A DNA stretch of 64,000 bases from an uncultured Chromatiaceae bacterium (GCA_947085765.1 CAMTXZ010000075.1:7810-71809), one strand, 5' to 3'; positions 35,927-56,278 are shown, counted from the stretch's first letter. Made by a program: numbers and translations. Notes: generated by a model from the letters alone, not told the origin.

Positions 35927-38087
<2,161 letters not shown>

Positions 38088-38091
<4 letters not shown>

Positions 38092-38969: not shown

Positions 38970-39716
38970 ATGGAACAACATCCACTAGTCATCATCCCGG
39001 GCGGTACACGTGGCATCGGTTTGGCTACGGCCAAGGTGCTGGCAATGCAGGGCTACGCGCTTGAACTCTGGTATCAGAGCCGTAAGGATGATGCCGATAG
39101 CGCCCAAGAACAGTTGCAGCAGTTCTCTGTGCCGGTGCTCTGTCGTCGTGTCAATATCGTTGATCGTAAACAGGTTCAGGATGCGCTGAATGATGTTGTC
39201 AGAAATCACGCGACCATTCATGGTCTGGTAAATAACGCCGGCATCCTGCAACAGAAACCCTTCGCCACCATCAGCGATGATGATTGGGAACGTATGGTCA
39301 ACGTCAACCTCAAAGGGGCGTTTATCTGTTCGCAGGAGGTGATGGCGCGCATGGCAGACAACGGTGGTGTGATTGTCAATGTCGCCTCATCGGGTGGCCA
39401 GCTGGGTGGCATGTTGGCTGTTCACTATGCCGTGACCAAGGCTGGCATCATTGCGCTGACAAAATCGTTGGCACGTGTCGGCGCTGCTAACGCAATACGT
39501 TGCAACTGTGTATCCCCTGGACTGATTGTGACGGAGATGACCCAGGGTGAACTAAATTCAGACGCCGGCCGCGACAAAATCTCCCTGCATGTACCGCTGG
39601 CCCGTGCCGGTGAGGCGCAGGAGGTGGCCGATGCCATTGCTTATTTGCTTTCTGAAAAAGCAACCTACATCACCGGCCAGACACTTAACGTCAACGGCGG
39701 GTTGTACATGGGATGA
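38970..39716 (+). CDS. SDR-family oxidoreductase (FabG-like; PtmA-like flagellin modification dehydrogenase)
   Basis: TGxxxGIG motif (GGTRGIGLA), NNAG motif, and catalytic Y and K (YAVTK). Confidence 0.8.
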   Translation: MEQHPLVIIPGGTRGIGLATAKVLAMQGYALELWYQSRKDDADSAQEQLQQFSVPVLCRRVNIVDRKQVQDALNDVVRNHATIHGLVNNAGILQQKPFATISDDDWERMVNVNLKGAFICSQEVMARMADNGGVIVNVASSGGQLGGMLAVHYAVTKAGIIALTKSLARVGAANAIRCNCVSPGLIVTEMTQGELNSDAGRDKISLHVPLARAGEAQEVADAIAYLLSEKATYITGQTLNVNGGLYMG

Positions 39717-40783
39717 AGCAGCTGAATCAACAGCCACACGCAGCAATCATTGGTCTTGGCCGCATCGCCTGGCGTATGGAAGATGATCTCTTGCGCACCA
39801 AACCCTGTACCTACGTGGGTGGCTATCTCAAACATGGCTGCCATATTCAGGCTGGCTGTGATGTGGATGAGAAGGCGCGGCGTGAATTTGGCAAACGTTA
39901 TGGTGTTGCACCGCTCTATGAAAACTATCAGCAGATGCTGGCAGAGCAGCAGATCGATCTGCTCAGCATTTCGGCCTACGCCACCGAGCGTCATGCGATG
40001 GTGATGGCCGCTATCAAACAGAATATCCTGGCCATCTTTTGCGAGAAGGCGCTGGCCACTTCGTTGGAGCAGGCGGACGAGATGGTTACAGCACTTGAGG
40101 CGAGCAACACCACGTTTGTCACCGGCCACATGCGACGCTGGTCTAACAATTATCAACAGGTGAAGAGCATGATCGACAGCGAGACCATTGGTCGCGTGCT
40201 CTCGGTCAATGTGCTCTTCTCCGGCAGCCTGATCCACACCGGCACCCATGCCTTTGATCTGCTGCACTGGTGGTTTGGTGCGCCGTTGGCGGCGCAGGGG
40301 CGAGTGGTCAGCAAGGCCAAAAAAGATAAACAGAGTGGTTATCGTTATAGCGACAAGGAACTTGCCGATGGTGGAGGTGTGGGACGTCTGCATTTTGCCA
40401 ACGGCGTGGTGGCGACGATTGAAGGACAGGTGAAAGATTATTTTATTTTTGAGTTCGATATCGTCGGCACAAATGGGCGTATCAGGATCGGCAATGATGG
40501 CCTCGTGCTTTATCGTCCCACTGCAAGCAAGCAGATGAGTGGCTTTGATGAGCTAATGCCTGCAACGGTTGAAACAGCAGCCCCTGTTTATGAAGGCAGT
40601 GCCTGGGATGCCGCAGTGGCAGCGTTGTTGGGGAATCAGCAGTGTCTGCAAGTAGCATCCACCGCACAAGATGCACGTATGGCACTGGAGATGGCGCTGG
40701 CCTTCTATCACTGCCAGCAACAGGGTGGTCTTGAGGTGATGTTCCCTCTGTCGCGCAACGGATTGTCAGTCCCTTCAAGATAA
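39713..40783 (+). CDS. Gfo/Idh/MocA-family NAD(P)-dependent oxidoreductase
   Basis: N-terminal Rossmann motif AIIGLGRIAWRM, the EKAL motif and the family's C-terminal alpha/beta domain. 356 aa. Confidence 0.8.
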   Translation: MKQLNQQPHAAIIGLGRIAWRMEDDLLRTKPCTYVGGYLKHGCHIQAGCDVDEKARREFGKRYGVAPLYENYQQMLAEQQIDLLSISAYATERHAMVMAAIKQNILAIFCEKALATSLEQADEMVTALEASNTTFVTGHMRRWSNNYQQVKSMIDSETIGRVLSVNVLFSGSLIHTGTHAFDLLHWWFGAPLAAQGRVVSKAKKDKQSGYRYSDKELADGGGVGRLHFANGVVATIEGQVKDYFIFEFDIVGTNGRIRIGNDGLVLYRPTASKQMSGFDELMPATVETAAPVYEGSAWDAAVAALLGNQQCLQVASTAQDARMALEMALAFYHCQQQGGLEVMFPLSRNGLSVPSR

Positions 40784-40790: not shown

Positions 40791-42026
40791 ATGATAAATA
40801 TGAATGAGTTGCCATGGACCGGCGTACAACGGCTGCAACGTAGCGATGCTGCTACACCGTTGCAGTTAACACGCCATTGTCCCTTATGTAAAAGCAGTGC
40901 GGAGCATGAACTGTTTGCACTGCACGACTTCCAGTTTTTCACCGACCAGGCAGGCCGCAATCGCGCCGACCATCGGGTGGTTCACTGCCAGCAGTGTGGC
41001 CTGATCTATACCAACCCCTGTTATACACCGGCAGGATTTCAGCTGCTATTTGATAAGGCCGGTTGCAGTTATGGCCATACTGCCGGGCGCATCGGTGAAC
41101 AGGTGGCGTGGCTGAACGAACAATTTCCCATCGCACAATCGCTGCTGGATGTTGGCTGTGGTAATGGCGATCTGCTTAAGGCGCTGCCGCAGACGCTCGC
41201 GCGTCACGGTATCGACATTGATGAGCAGACGCTCAACCGCGTGGCGCAGGATGCCCCCGGGATTGATTTTAGTGTCTGCGATTTTAATGGTCTGAAGGGT
41301 CTGCCGCAGGTGGATGTGATCACCATGTTCCATGTTCTGGAACATCTGCCCGACCCCGATGATTTTCTTGCTCAACTCAGATCTCTGTCGAAGCCTTCTG
41401 CTGCGCTGGTGGTCGAGGTGCCGGTGGTCGATCGCGCCGCTGAGTTGCAGGATCGTGATGTGGTTGGTTTTTTCACCGTGCAGCACCTCACACACTTCAG
41501 CAAGACAACGCTGGAACAGATGTTAGCGAAAAACGGTTGGCGTGTTGTACATGCCGAGGCGATTGCGGGTTACAACGGTTGGCGGGTAGTGGCGGAGCAT
41601 GGCCCGGTGCAAACAGATGTTGGTAATGATGCCAGCGGCCTGATAGCAGCACGTAGCTATCTTGAGGTCTGGAAACAAAATGTTGAGCTGGTGCAGCGCC
41701 GCATCGAAACATTGAATTGCGCACCGCAAATAATGATCTGGGGAGCAGGGCAGCACACTGAGTATCTGGCGTTGCTGACACGCCTGTTTGAACTGGATGC
41801 CAGTTTTGTTGTGGTGGATAGTGATCCGATGAAACAGGGAGAGCACTACCACTCGTTGCCGGTGCTATCGCCGGATCAGGTTCCAGAACATGAGTGGCGC
41901 AGCGGAAACTTCCCAATAGTGATCTCCACCTATGGTGGCCAGGAAAGCCTGTTGGCAATCTTGAAAGAGAAGGGTGTGGCTGCCGCCAGAATCATCACAC
42001 TCTATGACCGGACATCACGTTACTAA
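40791..42026 (+). CDS. Class I SAM-dependent methyltransferase with N-terminal Cys4 zinc-ribbon and C-methyltransferase-like C-terminal domain
   Basis: CPLC...CQQC zinc ribbon. SAM motif I LLDVGCGNGDL. 411 aa, an architecture seen in sugar C- and N-methyltransferases. Confidence 0.7.
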   Translation: MINMNELPWTGVQRLQRSDAATPLQLTRHCPLCKSSAEHELFALHDFQFFTDQAGRNRADHRVVHCQQCGLIYTNPCYTPAGFQLLFDKAGCSYGHTAGRIGEQVAWLNEQFPIAQSLLDVGCGNGDLLKALPQTLARHGIDIDEQTLNRVAQDAPGIDFSVCDFNGLKGLPQVDVITMFHVLEHLPDPDDFLAQLRSLSKPSAALVVEVPVVDRAAELQDRDVVGFFTVQHLTHFSKTTLEQMLAKNGWRVVHAEAIAGYNGWRVVAEHGPVQTDVGNDASGLIAARSYLEVWKQNVELVQRRIETLNCAPQIMIWGAGQHTEYLALLTRLFELDASFVVVDSDPMKQGEHYHSLPVLSPDQVPEHEWRSGNFPIVISTYGGQESLLAILKEKGVAAARIITLYDRTSRY

Positions 42027-42052: not shown

Positions 42053-43747
42053 ATGACAATTGGTGCTGAAGTTATCGTCGACGCATTTGTCCGCCACGGC
42101 TGCGAGCGTCTCTATGTCTACCCCGGCGGCACGATTGCGCCGATCCTGGATGATGCCAAAAAAAGAGGGCTGGATATATTTTGCGGCCGCCACGAGCAGG
42201 GTGCCGGTTATGCCGCACTGGCGGTATCACGCTTGCGGCTGCAGCCGCAGGTGGTGATGGTGACCTCGGGGCCGGGTGTGACCAACCTCATCTCGGCAGT
42301 GGCCGACGCCTATTACGACAATACTCCGTTGATTGTGATTACCGGCCAGGTGGGGACGGGGGATCTCAAGCGTGATCTGCCACTACGGCAGCGTGGTTTT
42401 CAGGAAACCGACAGCTGTGCCCTGATGGCCTCGATCACCAAGGCGCAGTTTTTGGTAGAGCATCAGGACGATCTGGCACGGGTAATGGAGCAGGCGTTTC
42501 ATATCGCCAGCAGCGGCCGCTTTGGTCCGGTGTTGATCGACATGCCGATGAATGTGCAGCGTGGTGAGTTGTCTGCCCCTGCAGTTGTGCCAGCCATGTC
42601 GAAAGATGATCAGGCAGACGATCTTGCTGGCGTAGCAGAGTTGGCGCAGTGGCTGAGTGTGGCGCAGCGTCCGGTCATCATTGCCGGGCAGGGTGTGTTG
42701 TTGTCACGCAGCCATGAACTATTACGCGAGCTGGCAACGACCTATGGCATTCCCGTTTCACATTCGCTGTTAGGCCTGGGGGCGATGCCCTCTGATTCTG
42801 AATTAGCGCTGGGGTTTCACGGCCATACCGGCAATCAGTATGCAGGCAAGGCGATTCAAAATGCCGATCTGGTTGTGGCGGTGGGTTCACGTCTCGATGT
42901 ACGCCAGACCGGCAATCAGTTTGACCGTTTTGCTCCAGGTGCACGCATTGTGCGTATCGACCTGGATGCCAACGAGGCCAAACACGGCCGGGTGCGTACC
43001 AATCTGTTGATCAATGCCGATGCCAATGCAGCTTTGGCAGCACTATTATTGGCATTGAAAAAGGTGCAGCTGCCGCAGTGGTCGGTTTGGCGGCAACAGA
43101 TTGCGGGGTGGCGGCAAGAGCATGCCCTGACCTATAACAAACAAGGCAAACTTAAACCGCAACTGGTGGTGGAGAGTGCTGACCGTTTAAGCCGTGATAA
43201 ACGGGTGATCTGTCTCACCGGTGTGGGTTCTCATCAACACTGGGTGGCACGCCATTTCAGTTTTGACTATCCACAGCGCACACTGCTGACATCGGGTGGC
43301 CACGGCACCATGGGGTACGACCTGCCGAGTGCGGTAGGGGCACAACTAAATGATAAAGATGCGCTGGTGATCTGTATTGTCGGTGATGGTTCGTTTCAGA
43401 TGAACATGCAGGAGCTGGGGGCCGTGGCTGAACGTGGTCTGCCGGTGAAGATCATCGTGCTCGATAATCATCGCCTCGGCATCGTCTCGCAGTTTCAGAA
43501 CTTCAACTGGCAGGATGACCCCACCACTGGCAATAAGTGGAATCCCGATTTCGCCGCGATTGCCCAGGGATACGGAATTCGTGCCTTTACGGTGAGCGAG
43601 AGCGGTGATGTTGAGGCGACGCTGCAAGCGGCATTTTCCCATAACGGTCCGGCGCTGATTCATTGTGTGATCGATGAAGAGGAGGATATCTCGCCGATGT
43701 TGCTGGCAGGTCAAACACTCGACGGGATGTGGCCCCATGTTAAATAA
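42053..43747 (+). CDS. Thiamine-diphosphate-dependent enzyme, acetolactate-synthase-large-subunit-like (carboligase)
   Basis: 564 aa with three TPP-enzyme domains and a GDGSF...N TPP-binding motif. Confidence 0.8.
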   Translation: MTIGAEVIVDAFVRHGCERLYVYPGGTIAPILDDAKKRGLDIFCGRHEQGAGYAALAVSRLRLQPQVVMVTSGPGVTNLISAVADAYYDNTPLIVITGQVGTGDLKRDLPLRQRGFQETDSCALMASITKAQFLVEHQDDLARVMEQAFHIASSGRFGPVLIDMPMNVQRGELSAPAVVPAMSKDDQADDLAGVAELAQWLSVAQRPVIIAGQGVLLSRSHELLRELATTYGIPVSHSLLGLGAMPSDSELALGFHGHTGNQYAGKAIQNADLVVAVGSRLDVRQTGNQFDRFAPGARIVRIDLDANEAKHGRVRTNLLINADANAALAALLLALKKVQLPQWSVWRQQIAGWRQEHALTYNKQGKLKPQLVVESADRLSRDKRVICLTGVGSHQHWVARHFSFDYPQRTLLTSGGHGTMGYDLPSAVGAQLNDKDALVICIVGDGSFQMNMQELGAVAERGLPVKIIVLDNHRLGIVSQFQNFNWQDDPTTGNKWNPDFAAIAQGYGIRAFTVSESGDVEATLQAAFSHNGPALIHCVIDEEEDISPMLLAGQTLDGMWPHVK

Positions 43748-44978
43748 AGACTCAAATAAAGAAAATAAAACACTGTTGGTGATCAGTGGCGGCGCCGAGG
43801 CGGTGCCGGGCATCAAACGCGCCAAGGCGATGGGATTGTATGTGGTAGTGAGTGATATGAACCCCGATGCGCCAGGATTCGAGTTTGCTGATGATCGACT
43901 CATCGCCAGCACTTACGATCTGGAGCAGACGGTTTCAGTTGCCCGTGATTACCACCTCAACAAGCGCAGGCTCGATGGTGTTATATGTATGGCCGCCGAT
44001 GTGCCGCTGACGGTGGCCTCGGTGGCGGATGCCTTGGCATTGCCGGGTTTGACTCTGGAGACGGCGCATCTTGCCGCCGACAAACTGCTGATGAAACAGC
44101 GTTTCCTGCGTGATGGCATCGCCATCCCCTGGTTCAGTGCGGTGGAGTCGCTGGTACAGCTGCAACAGATTGTAAACGAGCGTGGTGCACGTCTGATTAT
44201 TAAACCTGTCGATAGCCGTGGCGCCCGTGGTGTGTTGCTGCTGAATGAAGATGTTGATCTTAGCTGGGCCTATGAACATGCGCGATCACAATCACCCACC
44301 CTGCGGGTGATGGTGGAGCAATATCTGCCGGGACCACAGGTGAGCAGTGAAACGGTGATGGTGGATGGCGTCGGCTACACCTCTGGATTTGCTGATCGTA
44401 ACTACGAATACATGGAACGTTTTGCACCCTATGTGATTGAGAACGGTGGTGACCAACCTTCACGCCTGAGCAGCGAGCATCAACAGGCGATCATTGCGCT
44501 GGCAGAGCAGGCGGGGCGTTCGATGGGGATTATGAACGGTATCGCCAAAGGTGACATGGTGATGACCGTAGATGGTCCGAAGGTGATCGAGATCGCCGCA
44601 CGGCTTTCTGGTGGTTGGTTCTCCAGCGACCAGGTGCCGCTGGCAACGGGTGTGGATCTGGTAGGTGCGGCAATTCAACTGGCCCTGGGTGAACAACCGG
44701 ATGTTGAAGCGTTGCTGCCAAAACATCATAAAGGTGTGGCGATCCGATACCTCTTTCCTACCCCCGGTGTGGTGAAGGCGATTCAACACACCGAGCAGTT
44801 TGCCAACAAACCGTGGGTTCATCGGCTCGGGTTTTTTATCGAACCGGGCGAACAGATTGGGGCGATGAGTGACCATACCAAACGCGCCGGTTTTGTTATT
44901 ACGTTGGGGCGTGATCGAGCCGAGGCAGTGGCCCGTGCTGAAGAGGTTATCAATAACATCGTGATCGAGATGCAGTGA
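43737..44978 (+). CDS. ATP-grasp domain ligase
   Basis: IIKPVDSRGARGVLLL and EIAARLSGG motifs typical of ATP-grasp enzymes. The track start at 43674 lies inside the upstream gene; ATG at 43737 is chosen (11-nt overlap). Confidence 0.65.
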   Translation: MLNKDSNKENKTLLVISGGAEAVPGIKRAKAMGLYVVVSDMNPDAPGFEFADDRLIASTYDLEQTVSVARDYHLNKRRLDGVICMAADVPLTVASVADALALPGLTLETAHLAADKLLMKQRFLRDGIAIPWFSAVESLVQLQQIVNERGARLIIKPVDSRGARGVLLLNEDVDLSWAYEHARSQSPTLRVMVEQYLPGPQVSSETVMVDGVGYTSGFADRNYEYMERFAPYVIENGGDQPSRLSSEHQQAIIALAEQAGRSMGIMNGIAKGDMVMTVDGPKVIEIAARLSGGWFSSDQVPLATGVDLVGAAIQLALGEQPDVEALLPKHHKGVAIRYLFPTPGVVKAIQHTEQFANKPWVHRLGFFIEPGEQIGAMSDHTKRAGFVITLGRDRAEAVARAEEVINNIVIEMQ

Positions 44979-44982: not shown

Positions 44983-46749
44983 ATGAACAGGTGCAGAGTC
45001 CTGGGTATTGTGGGGGCGCGTCTCAACTCCAGCCGTTTGCCGGGCAAACATCTGCTCGACCTGGCGGGCAAACCACTCATCGCCCGCATCTTTAAACGGT
45101 TGGAACAGATTGTTGAGCTGGATGCCATCGTGCTCGCTACCACCGCCGATGACTACAACCTGCCGCTGGTGCAGTGGGCAGAGCAGGCGGGTAAAGAGTT
45201 GTTTGCCTATGACGGTGATGTTAACGATGTGGTGGGGCGTGTTGATGCCATCGTTAAACAGTACCAGCCACAGATTGTTGTCTATTTTTGTGGCGACTCA
45301 CCGCTGATCGAACCGCACATGGTTACTCGTCTTATCAATGCACTGCTTGCTGCACCTCAAGCTGATTTAGTTGAACTGCGTTCCAGCCGGGAAGAACGGC
45401 GCTCCATTCATGAGGGCTTCATGCCCTGGCCGATCAAAACATGGCAGCGGTTGGTGGCATTGGCAACCGATGTGAGTGAGCGGGAGCATGTAGGCAGTTC
45501 GCTGAAAAAAGCGACGGGGCTGACAAAGATTTATGTTACCGATGATGAGGTGTTTTCACGCATTGAACAGCGCATTTCGGTTGATACCCCCTCTGATTAT
45601 CAATTTATGGCCACCGTTTACCAGCGCTGGTATGCACAGAATCCATCGCACTCTATCGTTTCACTCGAGTGGGTGATCGATCAACTGCTGGTCGATGAGT
45701 CGTTATCTCTTATGAATCAGCAGGTACGGCAGAAGGGTGTTAATGATCGATCGGCCAAGATTGTTCTGCTTACACATTGCGGTGAGTCGATCGGCCTGGG
45801 CCATCTGCGCCGTGCCATGGTACTGGCACGGGCGTTACAGGATCGCCACGCGGCCGCAGTTGAATTGCTGATTGTGGGCGATGCAGTTGCGCTGGCCGGT
45901 TTGGAACTGTTGCCACACCGCTTTATTGTTGCAAACAGTGATATTGACCAGTTGGCGCAACAGCTGATGGAATGCCACCCCGAGGCGGTGGTGATAGATG
46001 TGGCGGCTGATCGTTTGAACATTGATTTTGGCACGTTGTTGGCATCACTGCGTCAGCAGCAGATTGTCACGGTAGCCGTTGATGGTCTGGTTGAACAGCA
46101 TGAGCTGCTCGATCTGATCTTCATCCCATCGTTCTATCTCGCCCCCGAGCAGAGGGTGCTGGCAGTGCAGGAGAAGATTTTGTTTGGTTGGCATAATTAC
46201 TTTTTTGATCCGGCGTTGCAGCCGTCTCCCTGGAGTGGTGGCAATAAAATAATTGTGATGACAGGTGGTAGTGACCATTACGGTTTGGGCGCGCTCTGGC
46301 CAACCATGCTTGATGGTGCGTTGCCAGCAGGAACAATCATCACCTGGATTACAGGGCCTTATGCCAACGCGCCTGAAGTGCCAGCGAATCCACGGCTGAC
46401 ATGGCAGGTTGAACACGCACCTGAAAATCTGGCGCAGTTGATGGCACAGGCCGATTACGCACTGACGCCGTATGGCGTGACGCTGTTTGAGTTGTTGAAG
46501 TTGGCAAAACCGGTGGTTGCCTATCATCCGGGTAATACCCAGCAGGCCGAGATGGCAGTTTTTATCGCGGCAGAGGTGGCGCGGTTGGCCATGACGCCGG
46601 AGGGTGCGGTGGCGGCGTTGGTGGCGTTGATGGCTGATGATAAGGCCGCCAGGGAATTGGTAAAAAATGCAACGCAAAGGATGGCTGGCAGCAGCGGTGG
46701 CATCAAACTGGCCGCCAGTGTGATGGGACTATTGGAGCGCCGACAATGA
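44983..46749 (+). CDS. Bifunctional fusion: N-terminal CMP-nonulosonic acid cytidylyltransferase (PseF/NeuA-like) plus C-terminal PseG-like UDP-sugar hydrolase (GT-B fold)
   Basis: N-terminus GARLNSSRLPGKHLLDLAGKPLI is the cytidylyltransferase P-loop. The C-terminal half carries GESIGLGHLRRAMVLARAL, the PseG signature, and a GT28-like C-terminal domain. 588 aa. Confidence 0.7.
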   Translation: MNRCRVLGIVGARLNSSRLPGKHLLDLAGKPLIARIFKRLEQIVELDAIVLATTADDYNLPLVQWAEQAGKELFAYDGDVNDVVGRVDAIVKQYQPQIVVYFCGDSPLIEPHMVTRLINALLAAPQADLVELRSSREERRSIHEGFMPWPIKTWQRLVALATDVSEREHVGSSLKKATGLTKIYVTDDEVFSRIEQRISVDTPSDYQFMATVYQRWYAQNPSHSIVSLEWVIDQLLVDESLSLMNQQVRQKGVNDRSAKIVLLTHCGESIGLGHLRRAMVLARALQDRHAAAVELLIVGDAVALAGLELLPHRFIVANSDIDQLAQQLMECHPEAVVIDVAADRLNIDFGTLLASLRQQQIVTVAVDGLVEQHELLDLIFIPSFYLAPEQRVLAVQEKILFGWHNYFFDPALQPSPWSGGNKIIVMTGGSDHYGLGALWPTMLDGALPAGTIITWITGPYANAPEVPANPRLTWQVEHAPENLAQLMAQADYALTPYGVTLFELLKLAKPVVAYHPGNTQQAEMAVFIAAEVARLAMTPEGAVAALVALMADDKAARELVKNATQRMAGSSGGIKLAASVMGLLERRQ

Positions 46750-48710
46750 AACAGGCCTATACCATCTTCCATCTCAATCTGGCCTACTCATCCATTGCGG
46801 AAGGGCAGCGCCGCACGGTGATAGATAACTGTTATATGCCGCTGCTCGAATTGATTGAACAGCGTGATTTTAAGATTGGCATCGAGCTGACTGGCTGGAC
46901 GCTTCTGCAGATTAATACATTGCTACCAGAGTGGGTGACACGCTTCAGGGCGGCGCTGGCAGCGGGGCGTACCGAGCTGATCGGCAGTGGATATTGTCAG
47001 ATTATTGGACCGTTGATTCCGTTTGAGGTCAATCAGTGGAATCAGCGTATCGGTTTGAATATCTATGAAGAGTTGCTGGGCGTTAAACCAAGGCTGGCGT
47101 TGGTCAATGAGATGGCCTACTCGTCGGGCATGTTGGAGCTGTATCAGGATGCGGGCTATGAAGGCATCATCATGGATAGTGACAATGTGACGCTGGCTCA
47201 TGATTTCATCGCTAGCGAACAGCGTCTTCCCAGTTACGCCAACGATCAGAGTGGGAGTATTAAACTGCCCGTGCTCTGGTCTGATTCAATCCTGTTCCAA
47301 AAGTTACAGCGCTATTGCCACGGTGATATTCGTCAGGTCGATTATCTCGGTTATTTCGAGAAGCGACTGGTCAATAGTCGCGTGCCCTTAGCGCTCTACT
47401 GCAACGATGCCGAGGTATTTGATTATCGCCCCGGTCGTTATGACTCCGAATCGAAACTGCACCCCGAAGGTGAGTGGCAGCGCTTAGCGAATCTGTTTGA
47501 TAAGCTTGTTAATGAATATGCTATTGAAATGGCACTGCCTTCGATTGTGCTGAAGAAACATTTGTCACTCAATGGTCTTGAGTCACTCTGTCTGACATCA
47601 GCAACACAGCCGATCCCGGTTAAAAAGCAGGCCAAGTACAACATCAGCCGCTGGGCCATCACCGGGCGCGACGACCTCTGGTTAAACACCATGTGTCAGC
47701 GCCTCTATCAATCTCTGAAGGGTGGTCATGATGAGGTGCAGTGGCGCAGACTTTGCGAACTCTGGTCGAGTGACATCCGCACCCACATTACCGTCGAACG
47801 TTGGTCTGCTGCACAACAGCAGGTGCGGCAGATGTTGGCCGCACTTGGTGACAATGGTGATTTTGATGGTGGTGTGAAACAGCAGTTTCCTACCGCGAAT
47901 ATTATTCGCGGTGTATGTGATGGTGTGACTGTTGAACGTGACCCCGAGGGCATCATGCTGACACTTGTTACGCCTGACATCCGGCTGCGAGTAAACCTGC
48001 GGCGTGGCATGGCGATTGATTCACTCGCCTTCAGGAGTCATGGCTGGCAGCCGGTGATTGGTACCTTACCCCACGGCTATTTTGACTCTATTGAACTGGG
48101 TGCAGATTTTTACTCGGCCATTACCGTGATCGAAAAGGTGACACAACATCAACGTATCACCGATCTGGAAAAGGTCGAGCCAGTGATGACACATGATGAA
48201 CACTACCTCTATCTGCGCGCCGTGCTTGTCACCAAAGATGGCGAGATTGTCAAACAGCTGCGCATTTCACGTCATGGTGAAACGGTTGGTTTTGGCATTG
48301 AGTTTCCTGGTTGGAAGCGTCCCTATGGCACCGTGCGTACCGGTTATCTCACCTTTCTGCCCGAGGCCTTTACTGGAACCGTGAAGGTTAAGAGCCGCAA
48401 CGGTGGCAAGATGGCGGAGTCTTTTGAACTCGACCGTGATGTACTGCATACCCAACCCGCCTCGACGCTGGTCTCTGCGACCACCGGTCTGGGCGGGGAG
48501 AACGGTTCAATCATTGTGACGGATGATGTGGTAGGGGTGGTGATCGACTGGCAGCCATCGGCGTGTGCAGCGTTCCCGATGCTCTATCATCGTGAGTGTT
48601 CACCCGCGGCGCTGACAAGAGTTATCTTCTCGCTGGCAGAGCTGGATGAGTCATCGCGTGATGGTGCCGAGCTGCCAGGCTTCTCTTTTTCAATCAGTCC
48701 TTCAAGGTAG
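46746..48710 (+). CDS. Large conserved protein with an N-terminal region resembling the glycoside hydrolase family 57 catalytic domain; function unknown
   Basis: Block-wise resemblance to the GH57 N-terminal barrel: FHLNLAYSS (cf. HQHQP region), GWTLLQI, ELIGSGYCQIIGPLIP, VNEMAYS (candidate nucleophile Glu), IIMDSDN. 654 aa, translationally coupled on both sides. Confidence 0.4.
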   Translation: MKQAYTIFHLNLAYSSIAEGQRRTVIDNCYMPLLELIEQRDFKIGIELTGWTLLQINTLLPEWVTRFRAALAAGRTELIGSGYCQIIGPLIPFEVNQWNQRIGLNIYEELLGVKPRLALVNEMAYSSGMLELYQDAGYEGIIMDSDNVTLAHDFIASEQRLPSYANDQSGSIKLPVLWSDSILFQKLQRYCHGDIRQVDYLGYFEKRLVNSRVPLALYCNDAEVFDYRPGRYDSESKLHPEGEWQRLANLFDKLVNEYAIEMALPSIVLKKHLSLNGLESLCLTSATQPIPVKKQAKYNISRWAITGRDDLWLNTMCQRLYQSLKGGHDEVQWRRLCELWSSDIRTHITVERWSAAQQQVRQMLAALGDNGDFDGGVKQQFPTANIIRGVCDGVTVERDPEGIMLTLVTPDIRLRVNLRRGMAIDSLAFRSHGWQPVIGTLPHGYFDSIELGADFYSAITVIEKVTQHQRITDLEKVEPVMTHDEHYLYLRAVLVTKDGEIVKQLRISRHGETVGFGIEFPGWKRPYGTVRTGYLTFLPEAFTGTVKVKSRNGGKMAESFELDRDVLHTQPASTLVSATTGLGGENGSIIVTDDVVGVVIDWQPSACAAFPMLYHRECSPAALTRVIFSLAELDESSRDGAELPGFSFSISPSR

Positions 48711-48716: not shown

Positions 48717-50000
48717 ATGCAGAGTGACTTTTTGCAGCAAAATCTTCAGCTGATTGAACGGCGCTGGCCGCTGTTGCATCGGTCGCTGGTTGAACTCAAC
48801 ACGATTGAGCGGGCACACTTCATCAGCGAGACACAACAAGCAACGCTGCTGGTGGATGGCATTCATCTGAGCAGCTGTTTTGATAGCCGGAGTGAGGCGC
48901 GCCTGCAAGCTACTATGGTTTCAGAGGCCGCAACAAAGGTGTGGGTCTATGGTGTGGCAACGGGTGATCTGCAACGTGAGTTGTTGCAAAGGCAGTGGCT
49001 GCAGCGATTGGAGGTGGTAATACTGAATCTGGAACTATTCAGAAGTTGTCTCCGATACTTTGACCATCGCGACTGGTTGGCAGATAACCGCAGCAGACTA
49101 ACATTGGCTACGGCAACAACCGATGTTCGGGCGCCGTTTGCTGTGGTGCCTGCCTGTCTTAAACTTATCGAACCGGCCGCCGCCAGGGTGCGCGATCTTA
49201 TTGTGCTCGATCTGGATACTGGTTATCTCAATAATCGGGTCAGGGGTAACCGCCAGTTCCAGCAACAGATCGATGAGAATTTACCACTGGTTAAACAGGA
49301 TGGTGACGTTGAGGTGCTATTTGGACGTCATGGAGATGGCCCCTGCTATGTGGCAGCGGCAGGGCCATCGTTGAGTGAACACTATGAGCAGCTGCGTGGG
49401 CGGGGCGCAGATAGCTGTTTGATTGCGGTTGATGCGGCGCTCAAACCGTTATTGCTGCAAGGCATTATTCCCGATGCGGTGGTGACCATTGACGGTGTGC
49501 GTGACCACATCATGAAGCTTTTTGATGTTGATCTTGCGCCACTGAAAGATATTCCACTGATCTATTTTCCGATTGTGCATGGTGATGTGCTTAAACAGTG
49601 GCCCGGGCCGCGTTATGCCGCCTACTCTAATAGTCCACTCTATGAACAGTTAATGTCGCACTCCCCCAAAGGCATGCTTTACGCAGCGGGTACTGTGCTG
49701 CATGCCGCCGTTGATCTGGCGGTAAAGATGGGCAGTTGTCAGCTCCATCTGTTGGGGGCAGACTTCTCATTTCCGGGCAACAAGACGCATGTTGCCAGCG
49801 CGGTCTTCTGCCAGTCGGCCGATCAAACTGGTTATCAGGAGTGGCTCGAGGATGGCCATGGCCAGCAGGTACGGACCTCAAAAAATCTGCGCGGTTATAT
49901 GCGTGATCTTGAACGCTACATCGCCCAACATCCACAGGTAACCTTTATCAATGCCAGCCGCAGCGGCGCGGCAATTATGGGGACACGTTATGTGGATTAA
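48717..50000 (+). CDS. maf: Motility accessory factor (Maf) / DUF115-family protein, candidate flagellin glycosyltransferase
   Basis: Maf-type N-terminus FLQQNLQLIERRWPLL. DUF115 core VAAAGPSLSE...LIAVDAALKPLL...IIPDAVVTIDG...LLGADFSF. Confidence 0.65.
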   Translation: MQSDFLQQNLQLIERRWPLLHRSLVELNTIERAHFISETQQATLLVDGIHLSSCFDSRSEARLQATMVSEAATKVWVYGVATGDLQRELLQRQWLQRLEVVILNLELFRSCLRYFDHRDWLADNRSRLTLATATTDVRAPFAVVPACLKLIEPAAARVRDLIVLDLDTGYLNNRVRGNRQFQQQIDENLPLVKQDGDVEVLFGRHGDGPCYVAAAGPSLSEHYEQLRGRGADSCLIAVDAALKPLLLQGIIPDAVVTIDGVRDHIMKLFDVDLAPLKDIPLIYFPIVHGDVLKQWPGPRYAAYSNSPLYEQLMSHSPKGMLYAAGTVLHAAVDLAVKMGSCQLHLLGADFSFPGNKTHVASAVFCQSADQTGYQEWLEDGHGQQVRTSKNLRGYMRDLERYIAQHPQVTFINASRSGAAIMGTRYVD

Positions 50001-50015
50001 AAGTAAGGTGTCAGA

Positions 50016-50279
50016 ATGATAAAAACCCCGTGTGATATATACAGGATGGAGGCAGTTGAGGCGTTTCGTCTTGGCATGGAAGGCAAGGGCAGTGATGCCA
50101 TGATGCGGTTGATGGATTGCATGGCGCCGTTGTTGGAGAGCAATGCTGCCCATCTTGGCACAGATGATGCGGAGTTGCTGAATCTTATTGCTGAGGCACA
50201 ACAGCGTGGCGACAACATCTTTGTGGCCGACCTTCTTGAATATATGATTCCAGATAGCGCGTTTGGTATGTCTCTTTGA
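50016..50279 (+). CDS. Small hypothetical protein (87 aa) at the 3-prime end of the glycosylation operon
   Basis: SD AAGGTG 6 nt upstream. 16 bp after the maf stop. No recognisable family. Confidence 0.3.
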   Translation: MIKTPCDIYRMEAVEAFRLGMEGKGSDAMMRLMDCMAPLLESNAAHLGTDDAELLNLIAEAQQRGDNIFVADLLEYMIPDSAFGMSL

Positions 50280-50316
50280 ATTTTATTTTAACGAGGGCAT
50301 ATCTTTTTGGTGGAAG

Positions 50317-52848
50317 CTATTCCAATTTTAGTGCTTGAGTAAGTTTCTCGACACCGGGGTGGTTTGGGTCTGTATCTATAATGTGGATGAGCGCACTTTC
50401 CGCAGCCTCGCGTGCACCAACATCGGATAGCAGTATGCCGAGTTCAAACATGGTGTCGAGATCGCCTGGAAATTCTTGTAAATAACCGGTATAGGCCACT
50501 ATTGCTTCGTTTATATATCCTGCCAGCGTCAGGAAGCGGGCATAGAAACTTTGGTAGCTCACTCTGCTTTCTGCGAGCAGTTTTAATGCAGGTAGAATTG
50601 TCTGGTAATCCTCATTAGCCAATGAGAAGTTGATAATACGCTCAAGTGCCATCTGTTTTAGATCACTGTTGATCGCTGTATCAATAGAGTAGTAAAGCGT
50701 TTCGGCCATTTTGTAGTTATGCTCCAACTCCGATGTGAGTCCATCTACAAATAACTTTGTCTGTATTGCCAGGGGTTCTATGCGTTTCGATAGCCCTGTG
50801 GTGATGCGCCTTAGTCCGACAGCATCACCTTTGGCATGGTAGGTGATGGCACTTTCGACAATCGATCCAAAGGTGTTGGTAGCTGATATAAGATCCTGAA
50901 AGCTCTGTTCAAAATTTTTGCTATCCGTACTGAGCATGGTATGGAATTGAGAGTGCATCAATTTAATACGTTCTTTTACCTGGGGCGATCTTTTTTTGTA
51001 GGTTTCAGGGTGGCGTTGTTTCCACATGTCAGCGCGGCCATAGACTATATCCTGCCGCCATTGACTGAACAGGGTCTCAAAATCGGGTGATGGGCGCTCC
51101 TCTTCAATGCGGCTGAGGAGGCGATTTTTGGCATCATGGACAACCTCTAACAGAACGGTGGCGCCATGGAGAAATTCTTCATAATAAATTTTTGTTTTGT
51201 TGAAAAGTTCATCGGCTGACCAGTCATCACCAGAATCGGCAGTAATGATCTTAGCAAAACCGACAGAGTTATAGTGCTTCACTGTTTTACTCATCATTTT
51301 AAAACGGATTTCAAGTCTCCTTTCTATTTTTTCCATCTGTTTTTTATATTTTGAGTATTCTGAGGTGTTGACCATCTCCGCCATCTTTGCATTGCAGTTA
51401 AGGGCAATAGCGCTAAGTTTTTTAATCCATCTTAAGTCATTGACGGCCTTGTCGAGTAGTTCGATCATGGTGTTGTAATAATTGCATCTATCTTCACGGC
51501 TATCTTTGTCGAGAAGTGATGAGAGGGTCTGCCAGGCAGATTGGGTAAGTGGCTCATCAATGATAAGTGCATCGGGATGAATGTATTCCACCCCTTCAAT
51601 TTTTGCGGCAGTAATGGCTAGATTGATAATTTTGCAATTATTCTTACTGGCCGCCACGGCCTGCCTTGATATAACCTTGATTGCTTCGTAATAGCCCTTG
51701 TTGGTTTCAGCCTCTACGTCAGCATTGGTAGTCACGGTGTAATCGATCCTCCCCAGCATCGGTCCGGCGGCATACTCAACGGTGCCCTGGGCGTGGGTAT
51801 GGCCAGCAGCGCTGTAGCATAGATCGACACCGGTGAGGACTATTTGCGAGCAGCCAAACTCTTGAGCAATTAGAATGGCGTTGTTAGTGACGGTAGGTGA
51901 TATGGTTTCAATGTTATCAAAATCATCATCGTTCCATGGCAGACGCGGACCGAGGAACAGATTTCGATGTGGCCATTGGCCGAGTAACAGCGGTGTGGTG
52001 TGGCAGCCATTGATGAAGATGGTTTTGTTGCCTAGGTTGAGCATCTCTTTGCTGACGGAGAAACTGACAAATTGTGGATCAATGGAAACGACTATATCGG
52101 GTTCTATTTCGGCCTGGAGCAGCCGTGCAGAGATCCTTGATACCGCAATCAAGATGGCTTCGTTTCGATGTCTTTTAATCCAGGGGATCAGTTCATCAAG
52201 TGATGGACCTGCACCCAGGATGATCGCGCATTTACCTTTTAAGCTGCCACGTAGATCAGCGGCAGGGATGCGGTTTTCTGCCAAATTTGCCAGCTGGCTA
52301 TTAAAGAATATGTGGCTGTCAAACTGTGCTGTGAAGAGCCAAAATATATGGCGTAGCTCTCTGTTAACCGACTGGGTTAGTGCCGGGTAGGCTGGGTGAG
52401 CCGCCTGTTGCGCTGCACATGATCTGACATAACTGATCTTGCCGGAGTAAGTGTAGTTGAGTAGGGCTAGTTCATGTGCGCGCTCGACCCAGTGAGTTGC
52501 ACAGCTGATGGCAACCCTGGTGGCCAGTTCGGTAGAAATAAATTTACTGTCGATGTGGGGGGCGATCTCATCCGGCTCTATAAATAGATAGCGACTACCA
52601 CGTGGCAGACCACGGTCGATAATAAACTGCGGTAACAGGCCGGAATCGCTGCCTACCACAACGTAGAGGGTGTTCTCCTGAAACAGGGCATCGCCAAAAC
52701 GTTTTTGGAATTCAGCGGTAGCACTGGCGGATTCAAAAATGGTGCCCACAAATTCCGTGATGTAACAATCACCAAAACAGTTTTCTGTGGTCGGCAAGGG
52801 AATTATCTCTGCTGTATTGATGTTTGATCCTGGAGACTGTGTGGTCAT
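50317..52848 (-). CDS. Second Maf/DUF115-family protein fused to C-terminal TPR repeats (about 843 aa; start could instead be 52899)
   Basis: DUF115 core CAIILGAGPSLDE...ILIAVSRISARLL...IEPDIVVSIDPQ...VLTGVDLCYS. Tetratricopeptide-like helical repeats at the C-terminus. Markedly AT-richer than its neighbours. Confidence 0.6.
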   Translation of the reverse strand: MTTQSPGSNINTAEIIPLPTTENCFGDCYITEFVGTIFESASATAEFQKRFGDALFQENTLYVVVGSDSGLLPQFIIDRGLPRGSRYLFIEPDEIAPHIDSKFISTELATRVAISCATHWVERAHELALLNYTYSGKISYVRSCAAQQAAHPAYPALTQSVNRELRHIFWLFTAQFDSHIFFNSQLANLAENRIPAADLRGSLKGKCAIILGAGPSLDELIPWIKRHRNEAILIAVSRISARLLQAEIEPDIVVSIDPQFVSFSVSKEMLNLGNKTIFINGCHTTPLLLGQWPHRNLFLGPRLPWNDDDFDNIETISPTVTNNAILIAQEFGCSQIVLTGVDLCYSAAGHTHAQGTVEYAAGPMLGRIDYTVTTNADVEAETNKGYYEAIKVISRQAVAASKNNCKIINLAITAAKIEGVEYIHPDALIIDEPLTQSAWQTLSSLLDKDSREDRCNYYNTMIELLDKAVNDLRWIKKLSAIALNCNAKMAEMVNTSEYSKYKKQMEKIERRLEIRFKMMSKTVKHYNSVGFAKIITADSGDDWSADELFNKTKIYYEEFLHGATVLLEVVHDAKNRLLSRIEEERPSPDFETLFSQWRQDIVYGRADMWKQRHPETYKKRSPQVKERIKLMHSQFHTMLSTDSKNFEQSFQDLISATNTFGSIVESAITYHAKGDAVGLRRITTGLSKRIEPLAIQTKLFVDGLTSELEHNYKMAETLYYSIDTAINSDLKQMALERIINFSLANEDYQTILPALKLLAESRVSYQSFYARFLTLAGYINEAIVAYTGYLQEFPGDLDTMFELGILLSDVGAREAAESALIHIIDTDPNHPGVEKLTQALKLE

Positions 52849-52938
52849 TGACTGGCGGTCCTTTCGCAGTTTGCTTCGATGATGCAGGTTTGGTGCCATC
52901 GAGTTATGACTGAGTACCTCTGAAAAGCCGCATTTGAC

Positions 52939-52966
52939 TAAAGTTAGCTGTTCAAGGGGCCGATAG
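52939..52966 (+). promoter_or_regulatory. Sigma-28 (FliA) promoter of the flagellin gene: TAAAGTTA-N12-GCCGATAG
   Basis: Near-perfect match to TAAAGTTT-N11-GCCGATAA, about 110 bp upstream of the fliC ATG. Confidence 0.7.
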
Positions 52967-53078
52967 ATTCTACGGGAGCGGTAAATATTTCAAATTAGGA
53001 AGTATATCCGCTGAAAGTGAGTGGGCGATGTGACACAACTTTGACACATCGCCTTGAAGTATCGTAGGAGTAGTCATC

Positions 53079-53900
53079 ATGGCACAAGTTGTAAACACTA
53101 ATATCATGTCTCTTAACGCGCAGCGTAACCTGAATAGTACCAATTCAGCGATGCAGACTGCGATTCAGCGCCTCTCTTCTGGTATGCGCATCAACAGCGC
53201 CAAGGATGACGCGGCTGGTTTGGCGATTTCGGAACGTTTTACCGCACAGATCCGCGGTTTGAATCAAGCCTCTCGTAACGGCTCTGATGCCATTTCTTTG
53301 GCACAGACTGCTGAAGGTTCTTTGAAGGAGATAACCACAAACGTACAGCGTATCCGCGAACTGGCGGTACAATCGGTCAACGCCTCAAACAGCACCTCTG
53401 ACCGTACTGCTTTGAACATTGAAGTAACAGAGTTAAAAGCAGAAATTTTACGTATCGTCGGCACCAAGTTCAATGGCAAGGCCATCATCGGCGCCAGCGC
53501 CGCCACCTTCAACTTCCAGATTGGTGCCGACGCGGGCGAGACAGTCGGTATTACAACCACCAACCTTTCAACGGCTGGTACTAGAACAGCCATATCCAAT
53601 CAGACTGTTAATACCGCAGCATCGGCGGCCACTATGATTACAAGGGCGGATGCATTTCTGAGTACACTCAACTTAGAGCGCGCCAAGTTGGGTTCGGTAC
53701 AGAACCGTTTTGACTCAGTAATCCGAAATGTACAAAACTCGGCAGAGAATATATCAGCTGCGCGTAGCCGTATTATGGATGCTGATTTTGCGGTAGAAAC
53801 AGCTGCACTGACTCGTGCCCAGATTCTGCAACAGGCCGGTGTGGCGATGTTGAGTCAGGCAAACTCCATACCTAACAATGTATTAAGTCTTTTGAGATAA
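53079..53900 (+). CDS. fliC: Flagellin (short form, 273 aa)
   Basis: Conserved N-terminal ([19 protein letters not shown]...) and C-terminal (...[16 protein letters not shown]) D0/D1 regions with a very short central segment. Confidence 0.9.
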
Positions 53901-53989
53901 GCCACTCCTTAGTTTGGTGAATATTATGAATAACTTGGCCGCAGCAGCGTCTGCGACCAAGTTGGATTAATAAATTAGAGGCCAAAGTT

Positions 53990-54391
53990 ATGGTCAATGA
54001 ATTAACAGGATATACAGCGCCGCGGCAATCTTTCGTACCTGGCGCTTCAGGATCTACCGTATCAGGGAAAGGAGATAATGCGGTAGTACCAGTGAAAAGT
54101 TCAGAAGTGAACGCTCTTGCCACGGCGGGCAAAGATTTGCCGTCCGGTCAACAGCTTGACTCTCAAACCCCTTCAGATGTTGTTGAAGCCGTTCAAAAGA
54201 TGCGTGACCTCATGCAGGTGATTGATCGTGATCTGCACTTTAGTGTTGACGAAGATAGTGGTCTTACAATCGTTAAAGTGATTGATTCGGAAACCAAAGA
54301 GGTTATTCGCCAAATTCCGTCAGAGGATATAATGAGAGTTGTACGATCCCTCGAGAGTGGAGGAGGATTGCTTTCTGACGTAACAGCTTAA
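53990..54391 (+). CDS. flaG: Flagellar protein FlaG
   Basis: 133 aa. C-terminal motif LHFSVDEDSGLTIVKVIDSETKEVIRQIPSE is typical of FlaG. Position between fliC and fliD. Confidence 0.75.
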   Translation: MVNELTGYTAPRQSFVPGASGSTVSGKGDNAVVPVKSSEVNALATAGKDLPSGQQLDSQTPSDVVEAVQKMRDLMQVIDRDLHFSVDEDSGLTIVKVIDSETKEVIRQIPSEDIMRVVRSLESGGGLLSDVTA

Positions 54392-54442
54392 GTATGGCAT
54401 GGAAGGTGCATTTTACTAGATGGGTTTTGAAAGAGGTGAATT

Positions 54443-55795
54443 ATGGCATCAATAACAGCGAGTGGAATTGGTTCAGGATTAGATGTCAATAGTATAGTTT
54501 CTCAGCTCATGAGCTTGGAACGTCGCCCTCTTGATACCCTTAATGCGCTTGGAACCAAGCTTACCTCCCAACTCAGCGCCTATGGCCAGTTGAAAAGCAG
54601 TATTGCTACTTTTCAGTCCGCCATGAAAGAGTTGAGCAGTGCTGATAAATTCCAGGTCTTTTCTGCGGCCTCTTCCAATGTTGATGCCTTTACGGTCACT
54701 GCAAATAAAACAGCCTCCGTGGGTAAATACTCCATGGATGTTCTTGCCCTTGCTCAGACCCATAAAATGACATCCGGTAAGGCAGGATCGGCTAGTTATG
54801 CAAATGAAAATACCTCTACTGGAGCGCTTGGAGTTCTCGAAATAACCCAAGACTTCGGGGGTACCCCAAGAACCTTCCAAATTAATATTGATGGTACCAA
54901 CGATTCGTTGGGTGGTATTAGAGATGCAATTAACAGTTCAGCAACCAATACCGGTGTTAGAGCATCTATTGTCAATACGGGAACCGAGAGTAAGTTGGTT
55001 TTAAGTGCCAATGATACCGGTCTATCAAATGCTATTACCATTGGAGTGGGCACATCGTCATCAGTTTCTGTAGCGCTGGGATTTGAAACTTTAGCAGGTA
55101 ATTCTGCGGCTGATGCCAGTGTGAAGATAGATGGTGTCACCATTACAAATTCAAGCAATGTAATTAGCACGGCATTAAGCGGTGTCGACATTACATTAAA
55201 AAAGACAGGTTCTAATGAAACATTGAACGTTGCCCGAGACACCTCTTCGGTTAATGCCTCTGTGCAGAAGTTTGCTGATGCTTATAATGATGTGCGCAAG
55301 GTAATAAAAACACTCAGTGCCAATAATGCCACCCTTGAAGGAGAGTCTGTTCTTAAAGGGATAGAAAGAAAAATACAGAGTATTTTTAATACCAGCGCTG
55401 TTGGTCTGACAAAGCAGCACGTATCAGAAATAGGGATAAAAACAGATCCAAAAACGGGTGATCTGTCGCTGGATGCTGCTAAACTCAACACCGCATTGGC
55501 CGCTAATTATTCCTCAGTGGCAGAGCTTTTTTCTGATAGCACGCAAGGTTTTGCGGTACGTTTTGAGACCATGGCAAATGATATGATATCTGCAACGGGA
55601 TTGATTGAATCGCGTAAGGAAGGTATCAACTCACGTATTTCAGGCATTGATAAAAATAGATTTTCTATTGAATACAGGCTTGATCTTAAAGAGGCTAGTT
55701 ATCGAGCACAGTTTTCTGCTTTGGATGGCTTGATTTCAAAGCTTCAATCGACAGGAAGCTTTTTGACACAGCAGTTGGCGAGCTTGCCTCGCTAG
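54443..55795 (+). CDS. fliD: Flagellar filament capping protein FliD
   Basis: 450 aa with N- and C-terminal FliD coiled-coil domains. Confidence 0.85.
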   Translation: MASITASGIGSGLDVNSIVSQLMSLERRPLDTLNALGTKLTSQLSAYGQLKSSIATFQSAMKELSSADKFQVFSAASSNVDAFTVTANKTASVGKYSMDVLALAQTHKMTSGKAGSASYANENTSTGALGVLEITQDFGGTPRTFQINIDGTNDSLGGIRDAINSSATNTGVRASIVNTGTESKLVLSANDTGLSNAITIGVGTSSSVSVALGFETLAGNSAADASVKIDGVTITNSSNVISTALSGVDITLKKTGSNETLNVARDTSSVNASVQKFADAYNDVRKVIKTLSANNATLEGESVLKGIERKIQSIFNTSAVGLTKQHVSEIGIKTDPKTGDLSLDAAKLNTALAANYSSVAELFSDSTQGFAVRFETMANDMISATGLIESRKEGINSRISGIDKNRFSIEYRLDLKEASYRAQFSALDGLISKLQSTGSFLTQQLASLPR

Positions 55796-56274: not shown

Positions 56275-56278
56275 GATT

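Follow-up and report, generated by a model that had tools for sequence, protein, structure and literature searches.

A described counterpart of the system treated here is the flagellin modification locus of Shewanella oneidensis MR-1. The sfmA–E genes of this locus are needed for flagellin modification, and the flagellin glycan consists of a 274-Da mono-N-acetyl nonulosonic acid and an O-methylated, nitrogen-free moiety of C9H16O7, C10H18O7, or C11H20O7 (PMC3765264). The locus encodes Maf-2, GlfM, SfmA (a NeuB-family protein of 290 residues), SfmB (a thiamine diphosphate (ThDP) enzyme), SfmC (a short-chain dehydrogenase/reductase (SDR)), SfmD (a methyltransferase), and SfmE (an ATP-grasp protein), and continues with two further methyltransferases (three in all), a protein related to glycoside hydrolase family 57 (GH57), SO_3269, PseC, PseB, and Maf-1. 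UniProt lists the GH57-related protein, AAN56266.1, as 'Flagellin modification glycoside hydrolase family 57', which is an annotation name only, and our literature search found no paper characterising it or linking GH57 to flagellin, pseudaminic acid, or nonulosonic acid. We found the same gene set, in a slightly different order, in a 64,000-nucleotide (nt) stretch of DNA from an uncultured Chromatiaceae bacterium (GCA_947085765.1 CAMTXZ010000075.1:7810-71809; the whole stretch is hereafter the window, and coordinates are counted from its first letter). The GH57-like protein encoded there (GH57L) is an ortholog of AAN56266.1, with 39% identity over the full length. Our analysis points to GH57L as a cytoplasmic small-molecule step in the biosynthesis of the donor sugar, and not to trimming of the flagellin glycan.

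The gene encoding GH57L was assigned from the call of open reading frames (ORFs), the Pfam search, and structure prediction.

46746..48710, + strand: GH57L, 654 residues from an ATG start (ORF call, Pfam PF03065, AlphaFold model with Foldseek)

The ATG overlaps the stop codon of the upstream gene (caATGA), and 6 nt separate the stop codon from the start of the downstream gene. An earlier interpretation made from the DNA alone (the sequence-only reading) had described the gene as translationally coupled to both neighbours; what stands of this is the very close spacing on either side, an overlap upstream and a short gap downstream. The Pfam family Glyco_hydro_57 (PF03065) matched residues 23–186 with an E-value of 2.2e-13 and 50.6 bits (gathering score 21.2), bearing out the 654-residue GH57-like protein of that reading. 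It was the sole domain detected in GH57L, the MptE-like domains residing in two neighbouring genes instead, and it was carried by all the homologs listed; no NCBIfam model matched GH57L. The only solved relatives found by sequence were GH57 enzymes, namely the 4-alpha-glucanotransferase from Thermococcus litoralis (1K1W), which was the best (E 4.5e-5 with the single sequence and 2.6e-6 with the family profile), and the branching enzyme from Thermus thermophilus (1UFA/3P0B).

An AlphaFold model built on 36 homologs (predicted local distance difference test score 87.8, predicted template-modelling (TM) score 0.89) divides GH57L into a (beta/alpha) barrel (residues ~1–275), a helical region (residues ~276–370), and a beta-sandwich (residues ~390–654). 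In a Foldseek search of the PDB, from which 50 matches were listed, the top matches extending over all three domains were the GH57 enzyme 1K1X (E 5e-21) and GH38 mannosidases (E 1e-20 to 1e-12, with TM-scores of ~0.6 on the query). The GH57 enzymes 1K1X, 7E1Y, 5WU7, 3P0B, and 9JLR all matched with a probability of 1.00, those other than 1K1X standing lower in the ranking. No deacetylase of the NodB type (CE4) was among the 50 listed matches, and Pfam likewise assigned no such family to GH57L; of the GH57, GH38, and NodB-like folds that the sequence-only reading had put forward for structural comparison, the first two were thus recovered. Strand 1 of the model begins at residue 2, and the N-terminus is unlike a signal peptide, for which there is no space. 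We therefore regard GH57L as cytoplasmic.

Among solved structures, the T. litoralis enzyme is the best match both by sequence and by Foldseek. The two proteins are similar in length (659 and 654 residues) and share the three-part architecture, and the nucleophile Glu, the acid/base Asp, and the Glu of the 'GQLEIV' region (E77 in GH57L) align. They nevertheless differ in several respects. The identity in the Foldseek alignment is ~13%; HQP probably corresponds to H-L-N in GH57L, and Trp221 and Thr224 of 1K1W to Arg228 and Arg231; and GH57L has an additional invariant Lys-rich loop and a gene context of nonulosonic-acid biosynthesis, not of alpha-glucan metabolism. The GH38 alpha-mannosidases (e.g. 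Bl_Man38A/B/C, 7UFR-7UFU, and Golgi mannosidase II) have the same succession of barrel, helical region, and beta-sandwich, but those among the matches are much larger (~830–1180 residues), and no Pfam GH38 family matched GH57L at E-values up to 0.01, so that the likeness is at the fold level only. The nucleophile of GH38 enzymes is an Asp within the zinc site.

Conservation in the active site was counted in an alignment of 397 family members, and the residues concerned are encoded as follows.

47109..47111, + strand: codon of E122, the predicted nucleophile (LVNEMAY), aligned with E123 in 1K1W and with the WLPEMAY Glu (1UFA/3P0B); present in 397 of 397 members
47406..47414, + strand: codons of D221-A-E223 (YCNDAEVF), D221 being the predicted general acid/base; aligned to D214/E216 of 1K1W (HDDGEKF); D221 and E223 present in 397 of 397 members
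46770..46778, + strand: codons of H9-L-N11, at the end of strand 1 in the model; likely counterpart of GH57 'HQP' and GH38 'HxD', by inference and not by alignment
47427..47438, + strand: codons of R228-P-G-R231, invariant arginines just past the acid/base at the positions of W221 and T224 of 1K1W; each changed in one sequence (396 of 397)
47622..47651, + strand: codons of the basic loop K293-K294-Q-x-K297-Y-N-x-x-R302 (PIPVKKQAKYNISRW), located after the barrel; 98–100% conserved and used as a search pattern

E122 is the Glu of VNEMAYS that the sequence-only reading had chosen as the candidate nucleophile, and its alignment and invariance agree with that choice. The acidic residue of IIMDSDN (D144), also named there, is displaced by D221, which occupies the aligned acid/base position; D144 is a conserved D/E position outside the aligned GH57 acid/base motif. 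The segment D221-A-E223-x-F225 further matches D214-G-E216-x-F218 of 1K1W, with F225 aligned to F218. Strand 1 of the model comprises residues 2–10, with the motif F-H9-L-N11-L-A-Y-S-S at its end, and H9 and N11 are kept in every member sequence that has an N-terminus. The proposal that HQP is replaced by NLAYSS was therefore probably out of register: the His is likely retained as H9 and the Q-P is lost, although this segment was not covered by any alignment. The region-2 Glu of GH57L (GRTE77LI) aligns with that of 1K1W (GQLE79IV) and is Glu in 94% of the members. E122, D221, E223, D343, R345, K293, K294, and R302 are invariant, as is the motif W340..D343-x-R-T-H347, which is a plausible counterpart of GH57 region 5 (AQCNDAYWH). 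The basic loop includes residues 295–297, which are of low confidence in the model. R228 and R231 may bind an anionic leaving group, and together with the Lys-rich loop they would form a site for anionic groups.

By profile, nucleophile, acid/base, region-2 Glu, and fold, GH57L is a member of GH57, and our confidence in its fold and active site is high. The invariance of the catalytic and basic residues across the 397 members indicates that GH57L is under selection as an enzyme. A retaining-glycosidase fold of the GH57/GH38 type with intact catalytic residues does lie within a pseudaminic-acid/Maf flagellin operon, as the sequence-only reading had it.

The GH57L family is large and widespread. 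More than 2,300 relatives were found in a large protein collection, and the 120 listed were near full length (~630–690 residues). A profile search of 1.84 billion cluster representatives gave at least 612 clusters (50% identity) at E-values up to 1e-30, and a scan of species-representative genomes found the gene in 259 species. The hosts belong to Gamma- and Betaproteobacteria, Chlorobiaceae, Verrucomicrobia, Acidimicrobiia, Desulfobacterota, Acidobacteriota, Bacteroidota, Patescibacteria, and Omnitrophota, and include an Aenigmatarchaeote; the closest genomes were Candidatus Tenderia and related gammaproteobacterial metagenome-assembled genomes (MAGs; 88–95% identity). Databases already class GH57L as GH57, so that the observation by itself brings nothing new. 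New here are the delineation of a large and distinct clade, the findings that it is obligately paired with an ATP-grasp protein and is independent of flagella, and a specific proposal for the substrate.

In order to compare gene neighbourhoods, stop-to-stop ORFs were called in 86 related loci, taking in the best 80 of 259 genomic loci, and compared with the proteins of the window. Associations were counted in those loci, 67 once redundancy was removed, that had 8 kb or more of upstream flank. The ATP-grasp gene was a neighbour of GH57L in 66 of the 67 loci, followed by the PseG-like gene (54), the short NeuB gene (~50), the SDR and methyltransferase genes (48 each), and Maf or flagellin genes (29). 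The PseG-like and short NeuB genes occurred together in 48 loci and were both absent from 13, while the PseG-like gene occurred alone in 6 and the NeuB gene alone in none. In the 13 loci devoid of both (e.g. L061 and L079), GH57L still stands beside the ATP-grasp, SDR, and ThDP genes. Two sub-modules can thus be told apart. The cassette adjoins lipopolysaccharide (LPS)-core glycosyltransferases in Chlorobiaceae and a Wzx-type flippase in an Omnitrophota MAG. Since the ATP-grasp gene is nearly constant, Maf or flagellin genes are present in fewer than half of the loci, and the cassette also occurs in LPS and polysaccharide settings, the link of GH57L is to a biosynthetic module and not to flagella. 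We hold with high confidence that GH57L belongs to the ATP-grasp module and not to the Maf step; the action on a flagellin-bound glycan suggested by the sequence-only reading, with its tie to Maf, does not accord with these counts.

A gene fusion provided a further clue. A 957-residue GH57L member on metagenome contigs (L087, 5609..8482; L088, 2005..4878) carries a C-terminal AAC(3)-type domain (Pfam Antibiotic_NAT, E 4e-37), which ties GH57L to an amine-acylation step. In this locus, an AMP-binding (adenylating) enzyme, an IolB/KduI-like cupin, and a DUF4910/M28-like protein replace the ATP-grasp protein. Very long ORFs in the high-GC loci L037, L040, and L062 were also considered as domain fusions and rejected as artefacts of stop-to-stop calling.

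The variable genes of the module bear on the substrate. Four enzyme types were mutually exclusive across the loci: DXS/transketolase-like enzymes (20 loci), acetolactate synthase (ALS)-like enzymes (17, including the window), UxaC (6), and IolB/KduI-like cupins (5, plus three shorter loci). The six UxaC loci (L025, L026, L027, L029, L030, and L040) are nonulosonic-acid operons of methanotrophs, Methylophaga, Roseateles/Pelomonas, and Chlorobiaceae. In Methylomicrobium sp. wino1 (L029, 3868..5271), UxaC scored 575.8 bits against the cut-off of 387 for the glucuronate isomerase equivalog, and the best named match of the adjacent SDR was D-mannonate oxidoreductase, under the cut-off of that model. 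A gene of the UDP-glucose 6-dehydrogenase type directly follows GH57L in L015, and in L018 such a gene is located inside the operon. UxaC is normally catabolic; both UxaC and IolB are isomerases that act on uronic acids at their free aldehyde end, and ThDP carboligases extend a free aldehyde by two carbons. All four enzyme types thus call for a free reducing sugar acid, the carboxylate of which is a possible substrate for the ATP-grasp protein. Because cells normally keep glucuronate as UDP-alpha-D-glucuronate, a hydrolase would be needed, and GH57L is the only hydrolase-type protein constantly present in the module.

The glycosylation operon in the window lies in a flagellar region that runs from flgD to flgL, through the operon, to flagellin, flaG, fliD, fliS, fliT, a PilZ protein, and FleQ. 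The operon and the genes that follow it are listed below.

35957..36955, + strand: PseB-type UDP-GlcNAc 4,6-dehydratase, the first gene of the operon (Pfam Polysacc_synt_2, E 2.5e-102)
36952..38091, + strand: PseC aminotransferase (NCBIfam TIGR03588, 444.5 bits against a cut-off of 423.5)
38088..38954, + strand: short NeuB-family nonulosonate synthase, 288 residues (Pfam NeuB, E 7e-59; under the NeuB and PseI equivalog cut-offs)
38970..39716, + strand: SfmC-like SDR reductase of the side-chain module (Pfam adh_short_C2)
39713..40783, + strand: GFO/IDH/MocA oxidoreductase (best named match inositol 2-dehydrogenase), confined to close relatives
40791..42026, + strand: SfmD-like S-adenosylmethionine-dependent methyltransferase (Pfam Methyltransf_23, E 1e-20)
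42053..43747, + strand: SfmB-like, ALS-like ThDP enzyme (Pfam TPP_enzyme_N/M/C)
43737..44978, + strand: SfmE-like ATP-grasp carboxylate-amine ligase of the L-amino-acid-ligase type (Pfam LAL_C2 and ATP-grasp_3)
44983..46749, + strand: fusion of CTP_transf_3 (CMP-sugar synthetase) and a PseG-like GT-B domain, 588 residues, like SO_3269
48717..50000, + strand: Maf-2-type flagellin nonulosonate transferase with no tetratricopeptide repeat (TPR) (Pfam MptE-like, E 5e-33), arranged as in S. oneidensis
50016..50279, + strand: 87-residue ORF immediately behind the Maf that has no TPR, probably encoding a GlfM-like specificity factor of the Maf-2-type enzyme
50317..52899, - strand: Maf-1-type transferase with a C-terminal TPR (Pfam MptE-like and TPR_19)
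53079..53900, + strand: flagellin, the presumed acceptor of the finished sugar (Pfam Flagellin_N and Flagellin_C)

We tentatively favour, at somewhat less than even probability, an explanation in which GH57L frees a hexuronate from an alpha-linked donor such as UDP-glucuronate, and the acid, once remodelled, is amide-linked to a sugar of the pseudaminic-acid type. The substrate, the order of the steps, and the amide linkage in the following scheme are our proposals. GH57L would cleave an alpha-linked activated hexuronate, most simply UDP-alpha-D-glucuronate, unmasking the free reducing uronic acid. In the window, the ALS-like ThDP enzyme would then extend the free aldehyde end by two carbons, the SDR would reduce the product, and the methyltransferase would O-methylate it, the oxidoreductase also taking part in the remodelling; in other loci, UxaC or the IolB-like isomerase would serve as the remodelling enzyme. 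The ATP-grasp ligase would join the carboxylate of the remodelled acid to a sugar amine as an amide, an amine that is presumably left free because the pathway has no PseH acetyltransferase. In parallel, PseB and PseC, together with the short NeuB and the PseG-like and CMP-transferase domains, would make the core sugar, a nonulosonic acid with one amino group left free, the last three completing and activating it. The two Mafs would place the CMP-activated product on flagellin, and non-flagellar hosts would use other transferases. GH57L would thereby be a functional analogue of PseG, as a hydrolase devoted to releasing a reducing sugar from nucleotide linkage in a nonulosonic-acid pathway. PseG itself has a GT-B fold and an inverting mechanism, and a separate PseG-like domain is already present in the gene upstream of GH57L.

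The mass data for MR-1 are suggestive in this regard. By calculation, glucuronate extended by two carbons and reduced is C8H16O8, the acyl residue of which is C8H14O7 (222.074 Da), and one to three O-methyl groups added to it give exactly the three formulas reported for the outer moiety. The flagellin glycan of Treponema denticola, a 2-methoxy-4,5,6-trihydroxy-hexanoyl nonulosonic acid (PMC13439194), provides a precedent for O-methylated sugar-acid N-acyl chains on nonulosonic acids. In a bolder version, which we consider doubtful, GH57L would be the first GH57-fold enzyme acting on a nucleotide-activated or alpha-linked uronic acid and the committed unmasking step of a widespread route, not described before, from UDP-glucuronate to O-methylated polyhydroxy-acyl side chains that sit on sugars of the pseudaminic-acid type in flagella, LPS, and capsules, and this route would also explain the 236–264 Da part of the MR-1 glycan.

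The decoration chemistry of bacterial sialic-acid-like sugars is poorly mapped; such sugars affect motility, the literature also links them to virulence, and the large GH57L family sits in the much-studied S. oneidensis locus. If the scheme is true, GH57 substrates would no longer be limited to alpha-glucans, and the ThDP, UxaC, IolB-like, SDR, and methyltransferase genes found with GH57L could be given roles. The scheme would also offer a way of identifying what the Shewanella flagellin glycan carries as its outer part, and of engineering donor sugars for Maf.

Several points weigh against the scheme. We know of no GH57 enzyme that acts on a nucleotide sugar or a uronide. The proposed substrate derives solely from gene neighbourhoods, and the functional interpretation as a whole from these and a single published glycan composition, the role of the basic residues being a suggestion. 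None of the four aldehyde-processing enzymes was found in 19 of the 67 loci, and a gene of the UDP-glucose dehydrogenase type was nearby in three loci only, such genes being common in polysaccharide loci. [quoted passage not shown] Deletions of sfmA–D each abolish all modification (PMC3765264), so that the order is not simply core first and side chain afterwards. The outer moiety of the MR-1 glycan is, in addition, easily lost in the source, which fits a glycosidic link equally well (PMC3765264).

The ease of this loss, as would be expected of a glycoside, is one argument for GH57L being a retaining transglycosylase, i.e. a non-Leloir glycosyltransferase that puts a sugar on the nonulosonic acid or on the flagellin-bound glycan, as proposed in the sequence-only reading. 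The best match, 1K1W, is itself a GH57 transferase, and the operon has no glycosyltransferase other than Maf and the PseG-like domain. On the other hand, 38 of the 67 loci have no Maf or flagellin gene, the amide-forming ATP-grasp partner would have no obvious role, and the UxaC and IolB-like enzymes of the module act on free open-chain uronates. The published formulas of the MR-1 outer moiety leave one degree of unsaturation only, which allows one ring or one carbonyl, and an outer moiety made of an acyl group plus a glycosyl ring was rejected on that account. We consider this function unlikely, and a new glycosyltransferase class is not favoured, the evidence leaning to a step in donor-sugar biosynthesis.

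About equally improbable is an action of GH57L after ligation, in which UDP-glucuronate would first be ligated through its C6 carboxylate to the amino sugar by the ATP-grasp ligase, with GH57L afterwards exposing the aldehyde of the resulting conjugate. The gene context speaks for this order as it does for hydrolysis before ligation, and the fusion with an N-acyltransferase domain suggests action consecutive with acylation. Glucuronate isomerase, however, normally uses the free acid with an intact carboxylate, and the UxaC within the clusters is a bona fide glucuronate isomerase equivalog.

GH57L might instead perform the PseG step on a UDP-6-deoxy-amino sugar, leaving the PseG-like GT-B domain to another function such as glycosyl transfer. 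The PseG-like domain of the fusion gene lies far under the PseG cut-off (54 against 153 bits), GH57L is usually a neighbour of the PseG-like and short NeuB genes, and the basic residues near its active site would suit a UDP leaving group. The short NeuB, however, co-varies with the PseG-like gene and not with GH57L, as its distribution shows (both in 48 loci, NeuB alone in none), and GH57L persists in the 13 loci that have neither. We accordingly give this assignment little weight.

Less probable still is a use of the barrel in non-glycosidase chemistry, such as N-deacetylation, or as a scaffold for the short NeuB, which itself has no usual C-terminal domain. HQP is probably altered to H-L-N, which we take to resemble the metal-binding HxD of GH38, the TM-scores of the whole model are higher against GH38 than against 1K1X, and the short NeuB co-occurs in ~50 of the 67 loci. 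Against this, the two catalytic carboxylates of GH57 do not vary, nor do the motifs around them, and Pfam gives no deacetylase family on GH57L. The MR-1 glycan moreover retains an acetyl group (PMC3765264); on this ground and that of the invariant catalytic pair, an N-deacetylase role was judged unlikely.

An ordinary alpha-glucan enzyme of glycogen metabolism merely located in the operon has the GH57 assignment in its favour but can practically be dismissed, as the neighbourhood is conserved across phyla in 259 species, classical GH57 enzymes match weakly (E 1e-5 to 1e-3), an Arg follows the acid/base where 1K1W has an aromatic residue, and alpha-glucan activity is unlikely from gene context.

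Some features of the neighbouring genes deserve mention. The short NeuB is, by position and size, the ortholog of S. oneidensis SfmA; its 288 residues compare with ~330 typical of the NeuB/PseI models, and with 58–68% identity across distant phyla it is the most conserved gene of the cassette. The methyltransferase (411 residues) carries additional regions at both termini, and its C-terminal part weakly matches (E 0.0015) the start of sugar acetyltransferases of the NeuD/PglB type. The ATP-grasp ORF as listed starts at 43674, giving a 74-nt overlap with the end of the ThDP gene, and the ATG at 43737 (MLNKDSNKENKTLLVISGG...) is the likelier start. The best named matches of the cytidylyltransferase domain in the fusion gene are CMP-Kdo synthetases and not PseF. 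The S. oneidensis counterpart of this fusion, SO_3269, has been called unusually large and unstudied (bioRxiv 10.1101/2023.12.03.569772).

GlfM is a specificity factor for Maf-2 (bioRxiv 10.1101/2023.12.03.569772), and the 87-residue ORF shares 29% identity with the 89-residue S. oneidensis protein in the same position, a weak similarity (pairwise E 4e-5). The window seems to carry both the 'tripartite' system (Maf-2 type with GlfM) and the 'bipartite' system (Maf-1 type with TPR).

A scan of the operon for sigma-70 promoters and terminators gave results no better than those for shuffled sequence, and a sigma-28 pattern like that reported upstream of SO_3261 was absent. A sigma-54-like -24/-12 motif, TGGCACAAATATTG, was observed in the intergenic region at 35877..35890 (+ strand), 67 nt 5' of the pseB start. 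This motif is not significant, with two matches in the window and two or more in 32 of 100 shuffles. A FleQ-type sigma-54 activator is encoded at 57380..58879.

The base composition varies along the window. The G+C content is 0.44–0.48 in 20001..30000, which contains chemotaxis and flagellar rod and hook genes, and in 50001..58000, which contains the Maf-1-type gene, flagellin, fliD, and fliS, compared with ~0.52–0.58 in most other 2-kb windows, including those of the glycosylation operon. The region 1..20000 includes ORFs of 1050, 751, and 648 residues.

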